Shown: positions 2,353-56,569 of the stretch, one piece after another
How positions within the stretch are numbered: the stretch's first letter is position 1
Layout of the letters: every line of letters starts with the position of its first letter
DNA from: Parcubacteria group bacterium GW2011_GWE2_39_37
GTDB taxonomy: Bacteria; Patescibacteriota; Patescibacteriia; Patescibacteriales; GWE2-39-37
Reading direction: 5' to 3'
Length of the DNA: 64,000 nt
Assembly: GCA_000995135.1 (NCBI GenBank)
Contig: LBWY01000001.1
Location: 501 to 64,500, forward strand
The notes under the pieces: model-generated
What the model was told of the DNA's origin: nothing
What the model saw: only the letters and a program-made list of their open reading frames with translations
Databases searched by the model: none
Program-made: the position numbers and the translations under genes

Positions 2353-3351
2353 ATGAAAAAAATACTTTATTTAACATTCGTAATTTTTAGTTTTAGCATT
2401 TACATCAATATGGCACTGGCCACCGAAACCAATGATAGCTGCTATAAAAAAATAGCAGATACTTGGTTCTATATAGATGAAGCGCTATCCAATATTGACG
2501 CTGCTAGTTTTCAAACAATAAATAGCTGCTACGCTAAAGACAAAAATCATGTTTATTACGAAAAAGATATTATAATTAATGCAGACACATTATCATTTCA
2601 GCCAATAAATATTTTTTATTCAAAAGACAAGAATCATGTTTTTTTTAAGAAACAAATAATTACTAACGCTAATCCATTTTCATTCAAACCATTAAACACT
2701 CATTACAGCATTGATAATAACAGTTGCTATTACTATGACTATTATTCTAACAAGGCTTACTTAATTGAGGGTTGCGATCCCAAAACGCTAAAACCGTTAA
2801 ATACTCCTTATGCGAAAGACAACAAAAAAGCCTACTATTTAGGTAAGTATCTTGAAGTTAAAGACGTGGATACTTTTAGATTGAACAAAACTGGCGAGAC
2901 ATATGCCGAGGACAAGTATAATTATTATATTGCTGGTGAAAGAAAAGAAAGCAAAAAATCGATGCATGAAAGAGTAAAAGGGAAAATTGTTATAAAAAAA
3001 GAAGATAACGGAAAAGCTTATTATGTAAGCCCAACAAAAAAAGCAATATTTTATCTTGGCAGACCAGCCGACGCCTTTGAGGTAATGCGCCAGCAAGGGA
3101 TTGGAATATCCAATGAAGACTTGCAAAAAATACCAAACGGCTCAAGCAAATTAAATGACAAAGATATTAATATGAAATTTGCTGAAAAGCAAAAGGGTAA
3201 AATATTTATACAAACACAAAGCCGAGGTGAGGCTTGGTATATAAATCCATCAGATGCAAAAAGATATTATTTAGGCAGACCAGCTGATGCGTTTAAAGTA
3301 ATGCGTAATTTAGGATTAGGCATATCCAATAATGATTTTTTAGACTTGTAA
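2353..3351 (+). CDS. secreted DKNYY-repeat protein with two C-terminal about 50-aa GRPADAF...GxGISN modules
   Basis: Signal peptide. Repeated DKNHVYY / DKNHVFF / DNNSCYY / DNKKAYY motifs (DKNYY family). Tandem KGKIxI...AWYxxP...YYLGRPADAFxVMRxxGxGISNxD modules. Confidence 0.7.
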   Translation: MKKILYLTFVIFSFSIYINMALATETNDSCYKKIADTWFYIDEALSNIDAASFQTINSCYAKDKNHVYYEKDIIINADTLSFQPINIFYSKDKNHVFFKKQIITNANPFSFKPLNTHYSIDNNSCYYYDYYSNKAYLIEGCDPKTLKPLNTPYAKDNKKAYYLGKYLEVKDVDTFRLNKTGETYAEDKYNYYIAGERKESKKSMHERVKGKIVIKKEDNGKAYYVSPTKKAIFYLGRPADAFEVMRQQGIGISNEDLQKIPNGSSKLNDKDINMKFAEKQKGKIFIQTQSRGEAWYINPSDAKRYYLGRPADAFKVMRNLGLGISNNDFLDL

Positions 3352-5457: not shown

Positions 5458-6582
5458 ATGAAAAACATAACCAAAGATTTCGCAAGTAATCTTCTGAAAG
5501 CAGCGGATATTAAAATCAATGGCAGCCGGCCATGGGATGTAAAAATCTATCAAGACAAACTTTATAACCGCATCTTGCGCCAAGGTTCGATCGGCTTGGG
5601 AGAATCCTATGTGGACGGTTGGTGGGAAGCTGAACGGCTAGATGAATTTTTTCATCGAGCCCTTCGTGCTAAATTAGATCGGGCAGTTAAAATCAAAAGA
5701 GACTGGAAAGCTTTGCTCTTTATTGTAGGACAGGTCTTGATTAATCACCAAACTAAAAGCGGTTCCCAAATTGTCGGAGAGCAACACTATGATCTGGGCA
5801 ATGATCTTTTTGAAGCCATGCTAGACAAAAGAATGGTCTACACTTGTGGCTATTGGAAAAACGCTGACAATCTAGATCAAGCCCAAGAGGATAAATTGGA
5901 TTTAGTCTGTAAAAAATTACAGCTGAAGCCTGGGCAAAGCATTCTTGATATCGGCTGCGGCTGGGGCAGTTTTGCTAAATTTGCTGCTGAACGCTATGGC
6001 GCTAGTGTCACTGGCATAACTATATCAAAAGAACAGGTGACTCTCGGCAATAAACTATGCGCCGGTTTGCCAGTAAAAATAATCAATCAAGATTATCGAG
6101 AAATCCAGGGTAGATTTGACCACATCGTTTCCCTGGGCATGTTTGAGCATGTGGGCTACAAAAACTATCGCACCTACATGAAGATGGTTCACAAACATTT
6201 GAAAGACGACGGACTATTTTTACTACATACCATCGGCAGTCTTAAAACCGTAAAAATAAATGAGGCCTGGATAGATAAATATATTTTTCCAAATGCAATG
6301 CTGCCCTCGATTGCACAGATAGGCAAATCGCTTGAAGGACTTTTTGTAATGGAGGATTGGCACAACTTCGGAGCAGACTACGACAAGACTCTGATGGCCT
6401 GGTTGGAAAATTTTGAAAAAGCTTGGCCTCAACTTGAACCGATTTATGGCCAACGCTTTTACCGGATGTGGAAATTTTTCCTTGCTGCCTGCGCAGGCGG
6501 CTTCAGGGCAAGAAAAATGCAGCTCTGGCAGATCATCCTTTCAAAAAATGGAGTTGCCAACGGCTACACATCGTTCCGCTAA
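5458..6582 (+). CDS. cfa: cyclopropane-fatty-acyl-phospholipid synthase
   Basis: GESYVDGWW, HYDLGNDLF, ILDIGCGWG and GMFEHVG motifs, and about 374 aa. Confidence 0.9.
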   Translation: MKNITKDFASNLLKAADIKINGSRPWDVKIYQDKLYNRILRQGSIGLGESYVDGWWEAERLDEFFHRALRAKLDRAVKIKRDWKALLFIVGQVLINHQTKSGSQIVGEQHYDLGNDLFEAMLDKRMVYTCGYWKNADNLDQAQEDKLDLVCKKLQLKPGQSILDIGCGWGSFAKFAAERYGASVTGITISKEQVTLGNKLCAGLPVKIINQDYREIQGRFDHIVSLGMFEHVGYKNYRTYMKMVHKHLKDDGLFLLHTIGSLKTVKINEAWIDKYIFPNAMLPSIAQIGKSLEGLFVMEDWHNFGADYDKTLMAWLENFEKAWPQLEPIYGQRFYRMWKFFLAACAGGFRARKMQLWQIILSKNGVANGYTSFR

Positions 6583-17455: not shown

Positions 17456-18727
17456 ATGAGTAAAAAATTACTTCCATATATAGGAGGCTTACTGATTGTC
17501 AGCATCCTAATTATTTTGCCCTTTATCAAACAAACACCAAAAAAGGCCACTTTCGGTCAAACCGTTTCAGCCGATAAGATAGTTAAGAGATATAATCTCG
17601 CACCTGCCCCTGCTTATCAGGACAAAACGACCTTAATCAACAGCAAGACTTACAAAGACTTGCCTGTGGGAGAGGTAAAGTCCTATGAGGCAAAAAACGC
17701 TTGGGGTACGGCGATATTCATTCCCCAGAATCATCGTTATCCCGGAACTAATCCGGCAGACAAGATAAATGATTCAGCTGAAGCAGCTCAAAACCAAATT
17801 TATGATATTATTTCATTCTTGAATGAGAAATATGGTATTAAATTTGTCATGGCCGAAGGCGATCTTTACGGAAAAGTGCCTCAGGATAAAATCAATGAAT
17901 TATCCCAAAGAATCAATGACCGTAACTTATTTGCCGATCAGGTTTCAGTTCTGAAAACTGAAATGAAAAATCAAAATATTGATCCTACAATAATCGATGA
18001 TTTTTCAAACAGCGCTGACCTTTACATTAAATCATTAGACAGAGAAATAATTCTGCAAGGAGCACCGTATAAAATGAAATCCGAAGGAAAGAATATCTCC
18101 TTGTTCGGATCTGAGGTTCGTGCTACCCAAGAGGAAAGTGCTGTGATTGTCAGAAATTACATTTACCAGCAAGACAGACAAAAAGCTTTGAACGGCTCAC
18201 AGGCCAAGACGATTGCGTCAAATGAGCGTTCTTCACTTGCAGATGCTTATGCAATGCTATTGTCAAAAAGAGGCACAAAAAATAACAGCCTGGAATCAAG
18301 CTTCAACCGATTGGAAAAGCTAACAACCGGAAATAGTTATTTGAACGGCATGATCGCAGAAACTGAAAAAACTTACCTTTCTATCAAAAATGTAGATAAG
18401 AAGGTCGCCAAAGTTTCTTCCCCTGCCAGAACAGAAAATCCATACGAGGGAATAAATGATCCTAAAAAAATCCAAACGCTGGTTAGCGAATCAGAAGAAA
18501 AAATTCAAAAAGTCGTTATCGACAGACGTAATGTTGAGACAGCAGAAAATTTTGCTGATCTATTAAAGTCAAATGGTACTGACATTGGAATTTTACAGTA
18601 TGGTGCTGGCCACGAAGAGGGTCTTATAAAAGAATTGAATAAGCAGGGAATAAATGTCATCATGGTTAAAGCTGATGAAGTATTAGAAAGAGAAAATGTA
18701 CCAAAAATCTCAAGCTTAAAGCAATAA
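17456..18727 (+). CDS. membrane-anchored hypothetical protein, weakly TraB/TIKI/ChaN-like
   Basis: N-terminal TM. The AEGDLYG and YGAGHEEG motifs are reminiscent of the TIKI/TraB superfamily. Very tentative. Confidence 0.3.
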   Translation: MSKKLLPYIGGLLIVSILIILPFIKQTPKKATFGQTVSADKIVKRYNLAPAPAYQDKTTLINSKTYKDLPVGEVKSYEAKNAWGTAIFIPQNHRYPGTNPADKINDSAEAAQNQIYDIISFLNEKYGIKFVMAEGDLYGKVPQDKINELSQRINDRNLFADQVSVLKTEMKNQNIDPTIIDDFSNSADLYIKSLDREIILQGAPYKMKSEGKNISLFGSEVRATQEESAVIVRNYIYQQDRQKALNGSQAKTIASNERSSLADAYAMLLSKRGTKNNSLESSFNRLEKLTTGNSYLNGMIAETEKTYLSIKNVDKKVAKVSSPARTENPYEGINDPKKIQTLVSESEEKIQKVVIDRRNVETAENFADLLKSNGTDIGILQYGAGHEEGLIKELNKQGINVIMVKADEVLERENVPKISSLKQ

Positions 18728-18729
18728 AT

Positions 18730-18761
18730 AAAAAAGCGAGCGTTTATACGCTCGCTTTTTT
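18730..18761 (+). terminator. rho-independent terminator
   Basis: GCGAGCG-TTTATA-CGCTCGC followed by T6. Confidence 0.75.
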
Positions 18762-18764
18762 AAA

Positions 18765-18792
18765 AAGAAAGACGGTCAAGACCGTCTTTCTT
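18765..18792 (-). terminator. terminator of the convergent minus-strand gene
   Basis: AGAAAGACGGTC/GACCGTCTTTCT hairpin. Confidence 0.6.
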
Positions 18793-18809
18793 ACTTATCG
18801 CGCCTCTGC

Positions 18810-19250
18810 TTATCTGAATAGCTGATCTAGAATAAATAGATCGCCCAAATCTGAACCGTTACCATCGCCGCTTAAGATGTCTGAGTTGTCACCGAATAAT
18901 CTATCCAGGACGAATAAATCACCTAAACTGTTGCCATCACCTAATATGCCGCCACCGATACTATCGCCGCCCAAAATGCTGTCGCCACCACTAAACAACT
19001 GGTCTAATAGGAATAAATCACCGAGATCGGATCCTGAATCATTCAAAATACCTCCCGAACCATCACTAAACAGCCGGTCCAGAATGAATAAATCACCCAA
19101 AGAAGAGCCTCTATCTGTAGAATCTAAAATCAATGCATCTTTAAGGATACTGTTATTTGTAGAAGTTTGAGCTGAAGCAACTGGAGCGACCACAAGGGAA
19201 AATGCTAAAGCAAGAGTAGCGAAACCTAAAGTTAATTTTTTAATCGACAT
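18810..19250 (-). CDS. secreted protein with four LGDLFxLDxLF repeats
   Basis: Signal peptide (..APVASA). LGDLFILDRLF, LGDLFLLDQLF, LGDLFVLDRLF and LGDLFILDQLF are separated by G/D/S-rich linkers. Confidence 0.7.
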   Translation of the reverse strand: MSIKKLTLGFATLALAFSLVVAPVASAQTSTNNSILKDALILDSTDRGSSLGDLFILDRLFSDGSGGILNDSGSDLGDLFLLDQLFSGGDSILGGDSIGGGILGDGNSLGDLFVLDRLFGDNSDILSGDGNGSDLGDLFILDQLFR

Positions 19251-19292
19251 ATGCTTTAAATTAATTTTATTAACCTTAAATAATTATAACTT

Positions 19293-19410
19293 TTCTTCCC
19301 CCTCGACCTTTGATGAGAACCATAACGGGGAAAGTCTGAGCATATCTAAATAAAATATTGTTGCCCAACTTGTTATTCGCATTTTATTATGGCCCTCATA
19401 TATATTGACG
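19293..19410 (-). promoter_or_regulatory. conserved structured leader, copy B
   Basis: Shares blocks with 20238-20352: GAGGGCCATAATAAAAT, AATAACAAGTTG, TCAGACTTTCCCC.TTATGG and AAAGGTCGA.GGG (minus-strand reading). Confidence 0.5.
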
Positions 19411-19550
19411 ATTTAAACAGTCAAATATTACTAAAATGAACTTTTTCTAAAGAAAGACGGCCTTTTTCAAAAGCCGCCTTTCTATTCTATAACTCTCACC
19501 CCAACTAAACAAAGTTCACTGTTTTAATGGATATGACAATAACCTTAAGA

Positions 19551-20201
19551 CTATTGAGAAATCCTATTTAAATTTGTATTGGTAATACCGACTCCGACTG
19601 TTTGAATAAGATTTAATGCTCCGGTCGGACCGATTACTTCAACAAGTGATAGATCTGCTGGATTTACATAAAACAATCTGCCGCTATCCTCTACTTTAAG
19701 CAAAAATCTACCTGATAAATTACTTGGCGCTTTGCCCGCGTAAGAATCGAAAGTTGCATTAGAAACTCCCAAGGCTAAGCTTGCAATCTCATTAAAGGCT
19801 TCGGCTGGTGTTGGACCAAGAAACACTCTTCTATTGGTTAGCGGATTTACATACCATGCTTGTCCTTTGTCTTGCACCTGAAGAAGTATTTTCCCTCTTT
19901 GTATTTCCGCAAACGATCTGACTGCAGTTGTAGTTACTGCGCCCGTGGTTGGCGTTGTTACTGTTGTTGCTGTTGTTGTTTTTGGAAATAGCTGGTCAAG
20001 AATAATCAAATTACCCAAGGATGTATCTGATGATTTGTCTAGAACTTTGCTGCTTCCTCCAAACAATTTATTCAACAAAAACAAGTCGCCAAGGTCATTG
20101 CCAGTCCTAGATATCGATGTCGCTGCAGCAGCCGGCATTGCTGACATGCCCAAGCCGATTGCGAGGGCGATAAAACTTAAAATTAATTTCTTAATTAACA
20201 T
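19551..20201 (-). CDS. secreted protein with two LGDLF-type repeats plus two GxPAxAF...GVxxTN modules
   Basis: Signal peptide, LGDLFLLNKLF and LGNLIILDQLF, a T-rich linker, then two modules related to the C-terminus of 2353..3351. Confidence 0.7.
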   Translation of the reverse strand: MLIKKLILSFIALAIGLGMSAMPAAAATSISRTGNDLGDLFLLNKLFGGSSKVLDKSSDTSLGNLIILDQLFPKTTTATTVTTPTTGAVTTTAVRSFAEIQRGKILLQVQDKGQAWYVNPLTNRRVFLGPTPAEAFNEIASLALGVSNATFDSYAGKAPSNLSGRFLLKVEDSGRLFYVNPADLSLVEVIGPTGALNLIQTVGVGITNTNLNRISQ

Positions 20202-20237
20202 ACATTTTTAATTAATTATTAATTATCAATAACAATA

Positions 20238-20352
20238 CTTTCCCTTCGACCTTTTAAAGGGAGGGCCATAATGGGGAAAGTCTGAACATATGGAGATATA
20301 TTCAACTTGTTATTAGCAAATTTTATTATGGCCCTCTATAGATAAAGACGCT
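20238..20352 (-). promoter_or_regulatory. conserved structured leader, copy A
   Basis: See copy B. P1 is GAGGGCCATAAT / ATTATGGCCCTC. P2 is CTTTCCC / GGGAAAG. Confidence 0.5.
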
Positions 20353-20361
20353 ACGGCTGAT

Positions 20362-20883
20362 TCAATGTGTCATTTTAATGTCTTTATACATTTCTTTTAA
20401 AATTTTCTTACCTCGGTAAATAACTACACTTACATAATTAGTAGATTTTGAGGTGATTGTCGATATTTCTTTGACGCTTAAAAAATCAATGTAACGATAA
20501 GATAATATCTTACGATATCCCTCTTTTAAGTTCTGAAGCTTGTTCTTTAATATTTCCAATTCGATTTTTTCTTCAATTTCTTGGATTTGCACGGCTGGTA
20601 CCGGGATTTCCCCAAAAGCTTGATCATCAATAGAAAAAGGAATCTTATTCTTATGCCTATAATAATCGGTGATCAAGTTATTGCTAACCATAAACAGAAA
20701 GCTTTTCAGTTTGATTATTTTATTGCTATTCCTGTTTAAATATTGCCAAGTTTTAAAAAAAGTCTCTTGCATGATGTCTTCTGCCAGGTCATAATCATTG
20801 ACGCGGGCAAATATATATCTTTGGATTATTAATGAATACTTCTCATAAGCTTCAACAAATTCATTTTTAGTTTTTTCTTTCAT
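20362..20883 (-). CDS. ECF-type RNA polymerase sigma-70 family factor
   Basis: About 173 aa with a region 2 (DLAEDIMQETFFKTW) and region 4 layout. Confidence 0.75.
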   Translation of the reverse strand: MKEKTKNEFVEAYEKYSLIIQRYIFARVNDYDLAEDIMQETFFKTWQYLNRNSNKIIKLKSFLFMVSNNLITDYYRHKNKIPFSIDDQAFGEIPVPAVQIQEIEEKIELEILKNKLQNLKEGYRKILSYRYIDFLSVKEISTITSKSTNYVSVVIYRGKKILKEMYKDIKMTH

Positions 20884-56497: not shown

Positions 56498-56569
56498 GGC
56501 GCTATCGTCTAGTGGTCAGGACACCAGGTTTTCATCCTGGTAACCGGAGTTCGATTCTCCGTAGCGCTA
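56498..56569 (+). tRNA. tRNA-Glu (anticodon UUC), no encoded CCA
   Basis: Cloverleaf read by eye: acceptor GGCGCTA/TAGCGCT (G1-U72), D arm GTCT-AGTGGTCAGG-ACAC, anticodon arm CCAGG-TTTTCAT-CCTGG, T arm CGGAG-TTCGATT-CTCCG, discriminator A. Colinear with E. coli tRNA-Glu. Confidence 0.9.

Follow-up and report, generated by a model that had tools for sequence, protein, structure and literature searches.

Leaders A and B, located on the minus strand of a 64-kb stretch of DNA from Parcubacteria group bacterium GW2011_GWE2_39_37 (the window, i.e. the whole stretch that was analysed) upstream of two genes encoding secreted proteins with LGDLF-type repeats, are members of an undescribed RNA family that is confined to Patescibacteria. 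The family is new, yet it is of a known kind, to which other conserved and structured 5' leaders of bacteria and orphan motifs resembling riboswitches belong. Its universal core is a helix, P2, together with an invariant single-stranded block, AAAGGUCG (the anchor), located 0-6 nucleotides (nt) 5' of the 3' arm of P2; in both window copies and in a part of their homologues, a second helix, P1, is interlocked with P2 in a pseudoknot. We give a probability of about one half to the reading that the leader is a cis-acting element of the 5' untranslated region (5'-UTR), which operates post-transcriptionally and in which AAAGGUCG would be the recognition site for a trans-acting factor.

Forty-two further loci (L-numbers below) were retrieved via the LGDLF proteins and were examined for the element by direct reading and by scripted scans. 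The same element was found upstream of ~35 LGDLF genes in independent Patescibacteria genomes and metagenomes, labelled as Parcubacteria, Giovannonibacteria, Falkowbacteria and Portnoybacteria, as well as in several further metagenome-assembled genomes (MAGs), some of them mislabelled. In these ~35 leaders, the 6-mer AAGGUC of the anchor is invariant or one base off, and the anchor (AAAGGUC(G)) mostly lies 36-60 nt from the ATG, or ~100 nt in two lineages. The recurrence of AAGGUC at a constrained distance from the ATG of ~35 homologous genes is far beyond chance. The anchor is also the single block of primary sequence, 7-9 nt in length, that is conserved throughout the family; besides it, the one recurrent sequence is GGGYCAUAA, which roughly half of the leaders carry at their 5' end. 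The sequence ACAAG in loop 1 was considered as a second conserved block and was rejected, as it is not enriched family-wide and represents one strand of a local hairpin in the window subfamily.

The 5' arm of P2, which sits 6-70 nt upstream of the anchor, is pyrimidine-rich, and the 3' arm is purine-rich and often GGAG- or GGGA-like. The sequence of P2 differs at nearly every locus with its pairing kept, for example CCCCUUUUUC/GAAAAAGGGG, AUCCUCUG/CAGAGGAU and AUUCUUCCUU/AAGGAAGAAU, or the further divergent pairs GGCCUCUUU/GAAGGGGCC, UUUCUCUGUU/AACAGAGAAA and UCUUUUUUCCCU/AGGGGAAAAAGA. In 29 non-redundant leaders, each compared with 1000 shuffled versions of its own upstream region, the best P2 helix was longer than in the shuffles (Fisher-combined p = 1e-17). 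MAFFT fails to register the arms, given the variation in loop length (6-70 nt) and in anchor-to-arm offset (0-6 nt). A block alignment was used, with fixed 8-nt blocks kept in register through artificial linkers; the arms in it were picked by the pairing search, which biases it to pairing, and with that bias 93.6% of its cells pair and all 16 pairs, including all eight P2 columns, display double changes. Nearly all P2 pairs in this pairing-biased alignment are pyrimidine(5')-purine(3'), with U-G in 22 cells versus G-U in one, and the helix can therefore be formed by the coding-strand RNA only. Two MAGs labelled Saccharibacteria (L018 ~2880-2935 and L021 ~2945-3004) carry AAAGGUCG followed by a local G+C-rich hairpin, GCGCG...CGCGC, with no 3' arm that pairs upstream; this hairpin form may be a further variant of the element.

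In the window, which holds just these two copies, A and B are strand-specific structured 5' leaders of two separately transcribed mRNAs for secreted repeat proteins (Table 1). Each consists of ~105 nt of structure and an A/U-rich linker of 35-45 nt (35 nt, 20202-20236, before gene 1), and the two regions share 79% column identity over 234 aligned columns. A preliminary description of this DNA had listed sequence blocks common to both leaders on the minus strand and two pairings between them; all of the blocks were found in place, and both pairings exist. The duplex energy of P1 is -19.7 kcal/mol in A, where it spans 12 bp, and -13.2 kcal/mol in B, where it includes two G-U pairs; that of P2 is -10.5 kcal/mol in A and -11.6 kcal/mol in B, with one U-G pair in the latter. 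The same description had proposed that C-to-U changes yield G-U pairs on the minus-strand RNA and A-C mismatches on the plus strand, which is so for the two G-U pairs in P1 of B and likewise for the U-G pair in its P2. The fold energies of the minus versus the plus strand were -32.2 versus -29.4 kcal/mol for A and -25.2 versus -16.4 kcal/mol for B, and P1 was predicted in both copies by single-sequence folding.

Table 1. Features of the two leaders and of the surrounding locus, with positions given in window coordinates.
Feature	Position	Strand	Basis or remark
ECF-family sigma factor gene	20362..20883	-	directly upstream of leader A; Pfam Sigma70_r2 + r4_2
Putative ECF-type promoter of leader A	20347..20371	-	-35-like GACACAT 20365-20371, -10 CGTC 20347-20350; motif pattern in homologues
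Putative ECF-type promoter of leader B	19407..19432	-	-10 CGTC 19407-19410; weak degenerate -35-like AGUAAUA 19426-19432
CGTC	A 20347-20350; B 19407-19410	-	
P1 5' arm A, GAGGGCCAUAAU	20325-20336	-	at or near predicted transcript 5' end; as a block, GAGGGCCAUAA(U)
P1 5' arm B, GAGGGCCAUAA	19387-19397	-	
Block AAUAACAAGUUG	A 20303-20314; B 19366-19377	-	
Loop-1 hairpin A, AG-UUGAAUAUAU / AUAUGUUCA-CU	20279..20307	-	centroid fold
P2 5' arm A, ACUUUCCC	20274-20281	-	pyrimidine-rich; 1 nt before P1 3' arm
P2 5' arm B, CUUUCCCC	19327-19334	-	pairs with 19295-19302
P1 3' arm A, AUUAUGGCCCUC	20261-20272	-	pairs with 20325-20336
P1 3' arm B, UUAUGGUUCUC	19315-19325	-	pairs with 19387-19397
Anchor A, AAAAGGUCGA	20246-20255	-	invariant, single-stranded; AAAGGUCGA with preceding nt
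Anchor B, CAAAGGUCGA	19303-19312	-	invariant; AAAGGUCGA with preceding nt
P2 3' arm A, GGGAAAGU	20237-20244	-	purine-rich
P2 3' arm B, GGGGGAAG	19295-19302	-	
Gene 1, 216-aa secreted protein	19551..20201	-	signal peptide, 2 LGDLF-type repeats, C-terminal double domain; ORF + translation
Intrinsic terminator between gene 1 and leader B	19451..19483	-	15-bp stem, then UUUCUUU
Gene 2, 146-aa secreted protein	18810..19250	-	signal peptide, 4-5 LGDLFxLDxLF repeats; ORF + translation
Convergent gene, 423-aa N-terminally anchored protein	17456..18727	+	third conserved module member; tblastn synteny

The 5' arm of P2 is separated from the 3' arm of P1 by 1 nt in A and by 0 nt in B, so that the strands follow the order A-B-A'-B' in both copies, and two helices in this order constitute an H-type pseudoknot. 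Of the two possibilities raised in the preliminary description, a pseudoknot or a two-state switch, the former is retained, and it recurs in other lineages; the latter is not indicated, since P1 and P2 do not overlap in the window copies. Loop 1 contains a hairpin, the inner pairs of which covary among A, B and L024 (UGAAUAUAU/AUAUGUUCA, UGGGCA/UGCUCA and UGAGC/GCUCA), and this hairpin explains the conserved blocks AACAAGUUG and UCAGACUU, which form its base. In copy A alone, UCCCUUU can also pair with AAGGGA (20262-20241, minus strand); the resulting hairpin would hold the anchor in its loop and compete with P2. It was flagged by the terminator scan and is absent from copy B and from the homologues.

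P1 was searched for across the family with the constraint that its 5' arm begins at CGTC+5 to +32 and that its 3' arm lies between the 5' arm of P2 and the anchor. It is present in 12 of 20 promoter-proximal leaders (~60%), both window copies included (Fisher p = 8e-11 versus shuffles), and is clear in A, B, L025, L039a/b, L046a/b, L001D, L010a, L014a and L014c/L019c/L026a. Its sequences are unrelated between leaders, namely GAGGGCYAUAAU in the window subfamily and AGGAGGCUUAUAA, AAAAGCCAU, GGACCAUG, CCGGGAAG and GGGGGC elsewhere. When seven leaders of the window subfamily were aligned by MAFFT on sequence only, RNAalifold returned exactly P1; in this alignment, 96% of the P1 cells pair, one compensatory C-G to U-A change is seen (L025, L039b), and five pairs have G-U changes.

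In the ~40% of promoter-proximal copies from which P1 is absent, other arrangements take its place. A helix with its 3' strand before the anchor closes locally inside P2 in L001E, L014b, L017a, L022 and L047b (the nested form), a 5'-terminal P1 closes before P2 starts in L015, and in the minimal form, in L013 and L002b, a 5'-terminal P2 hairpin stands alone. The helix next to the anchor thus has three topologies in the family, knotted, nested and absent. The pseudoknot is real and recurrent with unrelated helix sequences, yet it is not the universal feature of the family: the two-helix pseudoknot that had been put forward as the element holds for the window, and the universal unit is P2 with AAAGGUCG. 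A covariance-model search for homologues, as recommended in the preliminary description, reached the closer relatives. A model built from A, B and L024 (R1) and a second model built from the matches of the first (R2) recovered L039a/b, L025, L002a and L046a; none of these was among the seeds of R1, with which they received E-values of 4e-7 to 0.18.

Comparison with Rfam 15 (4227 covariance models) matched the leaders to no known RNA family. At the gathering threshold, a tRNA gene (56498-56569, plus strand) was the sole match in the window; at E <= 10, region 18700-20500 gave nothing on the minus strand of the leaders; and at E <= 0.5, 11 homologous loci gave one tRNA and two chance matches. 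The earlier statement that the leaders could not be assigned to a known riboswitch class was therefore upheld. No relevant literature was found on an RNA motif of this kind in the Candidate Phyla Radiation (CPR) or on LGDLF proteins.

Both window leaders are preceded by putative promoters of the extracytoplasmic function (ECF) type. The tetramer CGTC, the hallmark -10 element of ECF sigma promoters, is carried by 21 of the 22 promoters that were aligned, the exception being L039a with AGTC. From CGTC to the 5' arm of P1, or to P2 in the minimal forms, the distance is 9-12 nt. A (G/A)TCATAAT box is located 12-13 nt upstream of CGTC, and in ~280 kb nearly all occurrences of the pattern (G/A)TCATAAT-N12-13-CGTC precede leaders. 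The arrangement TGTCAYA-N15-16-CGTC resembles the ECF41 and SigM promoter types. The product of the sigma gene upstream of leader A scored 64.1 bits against the NCBIfam model TIGR02937 (sigma70-ECF; cutoff 42.9), with a SigM-like family as the best subfamily, and sigma homologues adjoin LGDLF genes in most loci with enough flanking sequence. With conserved boxes at fixed spacing and a sigma gene of the cognate type, these sites have the marks of predicted ECF-type promoters, which are probably served by the adjacent ECF sigma gene. The putative transcription start is placed by the promoter motifs and by the position of P1.

The preliminary description had reasoned that a terminator separates the two genes and that copy B must have its own promoter. 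The terminator is strong, the 70-nt stretch that holds it folding at -22.9 kcal/mol, and the predicted ECF-type promoter with CGTC at 19407-19410 agrees with the second point. The TTGAAT/TTGACT boxes, which had been noted before the GAGGG of both copies, do lie 23 and 21 nt upstream of it, but they do not mark the promoter; that mark is the CGTC block with the (G/A)TCATAAT box. As a sigma-70 promoter, TTGAAT/TTGACT was rejected, having no acceptable -10 element at 16-18 nt, being unconserved in homologues and not being called by the scan.

Two further observations concern the promoter region. The start of many leaders, GGGYCAUAAU, repeats the -35-like (G/A)TCATAAT box of the promoter (20325-20336 versus 20365-20371 in the window; L014 3586-3640), and it is kept even without a P1 partner in L014b, L026b and L040a. 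A sister clade of LGDLF genes (L041-L045 and L011; e.g. L041 2400-2500, L044 1400-1500 and 2400-2500) is without the AAAGGUCG element and has a textbook ECF promoter, TGTAAC-N17-CGTA, a leader of 50 nt in which a small hairpin lies at the 5' end, and a strong Shine-Dalgarno (SD) sequence (GGAAGGAGGUGA).

Neither window gene has an obvious SD sequence, as had been observed before, and this is ordinary for the genome. Among 57 crude gene calls over the whole window, five have a GGAG, GAGG or AGGA motif within 20 nt of the start, and the organism starts translation mostly without SD sequences, on A/U-rich upstream regions. No expression platform was detected after the element: P2 is followed by 32-45 nt of A/U-rich sequence up to the ATG, without a conserved hairpin or terminator.

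Some copies of the leader stand alone: they have a CGTC promoter of their own and either a terminator or a U-tract, but no open reading frame (ORF). Such copies were found at L001 ~5460-5650, at L014 ~2590-2750 (equivalent to L019 300-460 and L028 2090-2250) and at L010 770-900. The orphan copy L014a carries an extra 13-bp helix, and a decayed LGDLF fragment (GLFVLDQLF) comes after the L010 copy (L010a).

On the minus strand of the window, the order is the ECF sigma gene, leader A, gene 1, the intrinsic terminator, leader B, gene 2 and a second terminator (18762..18729). The last is a 15-bp hairpin with A-run and T-run flanks (18729-18762) between the convergent 146-aa and 423-aa genes and is probably a bidirectional intrinsic terminator. 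The sole Pfam match of the 423-aa protein is a weak one, to TraB/PrgY/GumN. An identical locus is found in GCA_000995525.1 (LBXO01000012), a Parcubacteria/Patescibacteria genome from groundwater. The same module, comprising an ECF sigma gene, one to three LGDLF genes and a convergent gene for a 430-540-aa N-terminally anchored exported protein, recurs across Patescibacteria, in most of the loci (window 17456-20883; L001, L010-L022, L039-L047); in ~20 independent loci, tblastn detected homologues of the convergent protein that are encoded downstream of the LGDLF genes and opposite to them in strand. Beyond the sigma gene and the convergent exported protein, the homologous loci have no conserved neighbours, and no anti-sigma gene was seen in them.

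The LGDLF proteins possess a signal peptide followed by two to six copies of the 11-residue hydrophobic repeat LGDLFxLDxLF, which are joined by Gly/Ser/Asp/Asn linkers. They match no Pfam or NCBIfam family. The family comprises 63 clusters, from Patescibacteria only, and some members are fused to LysM, for which reason the proteins are probably associated with the cell wall; their appearance is that of a wall-associated repeat protein or of a polyprotein that serves as the precursor of a short peptide.

In the mechanism that we favour, the element would act in cis, after transcription. P1 and P2 would tie up the 5' end, so that the mRNA would be protected and the A/U-rich landing zone of the ribosome kept free, and AAAGGUCG would be displayed beside the P2 helix for recognition by a factor that acts in trans and is most likely a protein. 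This factor would set the translation or the stability of the LGDLF mRNAs, which have no SD sequence, and the ORF-less stand-alone copies with their own promoter and terminator might be decoys for the same factor. The combination of a single conserved block with three topologies is more in line with a recognition site that is presented than with a ligand pocket of fixed form.

Several points weigh against this proposal. The transcription start is a prediction from promoter motifs and P1. The family-wide pairing statistics come from our own anchor-and-helix search with shuffle controls and from a block alignment in which the arms had been selected by their pairing. In the window subfamily by itself, the covariation of P1 is weak (47 of 500 shuffles were as good, with seven sequences), and the covariance models R1 and R2 recover the closer relatives only, the distant L019a (E = 0.28) and L026b (E = 0.49) being lost in noise. 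Some of the orphan copies may be mere relics, as L010a illustrates. Finally, no candidate RNA-binding protein was found in the conserved module or its neighbourhood, where just the sigma gene and the exported protein are syntenic.

Other ways in which the leader might act were considered and rejected. Sequestration of an SD sequence by the 3' arm of P2, or a "split RBS" (ribosome-binding site), does not agree with the distance of this arm from the ATG (30-45 nt), with the lack of conservation of hairpins in the linker or with the rarity of SD sequences in the genome. An AUG-started mini-ORF, M(F/L)RLSPLW, is common to A and B and is absent from L024, which speaks against a leader peptide. Candidate complements of the anchor, GACCUU in the coding region (Asp-Leu codons of the LGDLF repeats) and in a terminator of L017, are isolated 6-mers that, checked by eye, are consistent with chance, and the likeness of the 5' end of L001C to positions 1494-1505 of 16S rRNA, with a match at the 7-mer level in other leaders, is probably also due to chance.

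The pairing evidence bears directly on the idea that the conserved blocks function as DNA, for example as an operator or a second promoter, rather than as RNA. CGTC and TCATAAT are indeed promoter elements at the DNA level, and CAUAAU at the 5' end resembles a -10 hexamer. Arms that are 16-70 nt apart, however, covary with complementarity kept, U-G pairs abound on just one of the strands (22 versus 1), the spacing between the arms varies too widely for a protein operator, and the sigma-70 scan found no promoter there, all of which makes this idea highly improbable. The architecture of the window copies, with P1 at the extreme 5' end, the order A-B-A'-B', and a GGUCGAA before the 3' arm of P2 that recalls the 'C75-GAA' of J4/2, has in turn a superficial likeness to a self-cleaving ribozyme resembling that of hepatitis delta virus (HDV), whose pseudoknot starts with the 5' end and whose last strand comes after 'C-GAA'. 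Such a ribozyme, which is defined by a nested double pseudoknot (P1-P2-P3-P1'-P1.1-P4-P2') and a catalytic C in J4/2, is scarcely credible here: no Rfam model of HDV, CPEB3, drz or other ribozymes matched the window leaders at E <= 10 or the 11 homologous loci, the 1 nt (A) or 0 nt (B) between the 5' arm of P2 and the 3' arm of P1 leave no room for a P3/P1.1 arrangement, the minimal forms are without P1, and processing would be needless with the promoter directly upstream.

A purely structural stabiliser or insulator, with no ligand or partner, would operate through a paired 5' end that blocks 5'-end-dependent RNases and would keep the G+C-rich segments off the A/U-rich ribosome-binding zone. 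The predicted 5' end of the transcript is paired in every form (by P1, or by P2 in the minimal forms, 9-12 nt after CGTC), the genome initiates mostly without SD sequences on A/U-rich leaders, and the polypurine stretch recalls SD-like 5' stabilisers of Bacillus such as STAB-SD. A stabiliser would have no need, however, for a AAAGGUCG that is invariant across lineages where all else has diverged, its polypurine arm is paired and hence not free for 16S rRNA, and the ORF-less orphan copies would be left unexplained; we consider it unlikely. Orphan copies have a place in the suggestion that the single-stranded GGUC next to a helix might mimic the non-template -10 strand, (C)GTC, so that leaders and orphan RNAs would trap the ECF sigma factor or RNA polymerase in a 6S-like feedback on the regulon. 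The anchor GGUC does resemble the CGTC of the promoters, the 5' GGGYCAUAAU repeats the -35-like TCATAAT box, and the ECF sigma factor is the sole cytoplasmic protein of the conserved module, in which no anti-sigma gene was seen. The suggestion is nevertheless very unlikely, as it is a matter of resemblance only, the neighbouring bases do not agree (GUC follows a G instead of a C and precedes a G instead of T/A), and the knotted and nested forms differ in geometry.

An orphan riboswitch, in which a small molecule or ion would bind at the pseudoknot junction (made up of the AAAGGUCG loop, the upper end of P2 and the beginning of loop 1) and thereby alter the translation or stability of the LGDLF mRNA, is possible but doubtful. 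It would be in keeping with the 5'-UTR position and the constrained distance to the start codon, with helices that covary around an invariant single-stranded block, and with an H-type pseudoknot whose third loop is conserved and A-rich, a trait also of the SAM-II, preQ1 and fluoride classes; tandem and orphan copies also occur among riboswitches. It is less favoured because of the lack of an expression platform, the presence of one conserved block and the existence of several topologies. The one block of 7-9 nt does not amount to a multi-junction aptamer architecture, three topologies beside the anchor are unusual in a ligand pocket, the element is not followed by a terminator or by a helix that would sequester the start site (the lone terminator-like hairpin, 20262..20241, is in copy A and not in B), and the regulated secreted repeat proteins have no metabolic link that would hint at a ligand. 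The riboswitch function implied in the preliminary description has not been established.

Gene regulation in the Patescibacteria (CPR) is barely known, and few structured regulatory RNAs have been described there. The element defines a compact regulatory module, in which an ECF sigma factor and a recognisable ECF promoter are combined with a conserved pseudoknotted leader, bearing a single invariant 8-mer, and with secreted proteins of LGDLF repeats. These proteins may have to do with the life of these bacteria as episymbionts. The family is a clear case of a recognition block that is kept while the surrounding fold changes topology, and it supplies many natural sequence variants for structure probing. 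A broader view, which we put forward tentatively and hold to be rather unlikely, is that the AAAGGUCG/P2 pseudoknot could represent a new, CPR-specific class of signal-responsive riboregulators that might bind a small molecule or, as a mimic of the -10 strand, the ECF sigma factor or RNA polymerase, and so gate the ECF regulon for LGDLF proteins, with the orphans acting as decoys in trans.

Among known promoters, those of the ECF41 type and of the SigM/SigW type (TGTCACA-N16-CGTC and TGAAAC-N16-CGTA) share with the leader promoters the CGTC -10 element, the -35-like (T)GTCATAAT and an adjacent ECF sigma gene. Unlike in these promoters, the -35 box of the leaders ends in ATAAT rather than AAC and is followed by a spacer of 12-13 nt after the 8-mer; in addition, no anti-sigma gene or fused regulatory domain was seen here.

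Among known RNAs, the SAM-II (RF00521), preQ1-I (RF00522), preQ1-II and fluoride/crcB aptamers are likewise 5'-UTR elements with two helices in the order A-B-A'-B' that covary around invariant single-stranded nucleotides; a conserved A-rich loop that connects the 3' strands of helix 1 and helix 2 is a further shared feature. The leaders differ from them in a long loop 1 (45-90 nt, with hairpins), in the one conserved block, in a topology that is not fixed and in the absence of a covariance-model match; their purine-rich 3' arm, 30-45 nt from the ATG, provides no evident SD or terminator platform, and the genes that follow encode secreted repeat proteins.

Stabilisers of mRNA 5' ends in Gram-positive bacteria such as the STAB-SD of cryIIIA, the SP82 polypurine stabiliser and the 5' stem-loops of ompA and aprE resemble the leaders in being structured or polypurine elements at the extreme 5' end of a long leader, far upstream of the start codon, and in being located on mRNAs for highly expressed secreted or surface proteins. 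In the leaders, in contrast, the polypurine stretch is base-paired, the invariant block is not an SD sequence, and the family has a pseudoknot topology. STAB-SD is defined by a free, SD-like polypurine sequence close to the 5' end that is able to pair with the 3' end of 16S rRNA; the 3' arms of P2 agree with it in being purine-rich and often GGAG/GGGA-like and depart from it in pairing with the 5' arm, and SD sequences are rare in the genome. In the protein-titration systems CsrA with CsrB/RsmZ and ANTAR/EutV with EutX, a short invariant motif by or in a hairpin of mRNA leaders also occurs in stand-alone small RNAs that act as decoys, as does AAAGGUCG in the leaders and orphan copies. The leader motif differs from the A(N)GGA of CsrA and from the two-hairpin hexaloops of ANTAR systems, there is one site per RNA instead of many, and the analogy is a functional one only.

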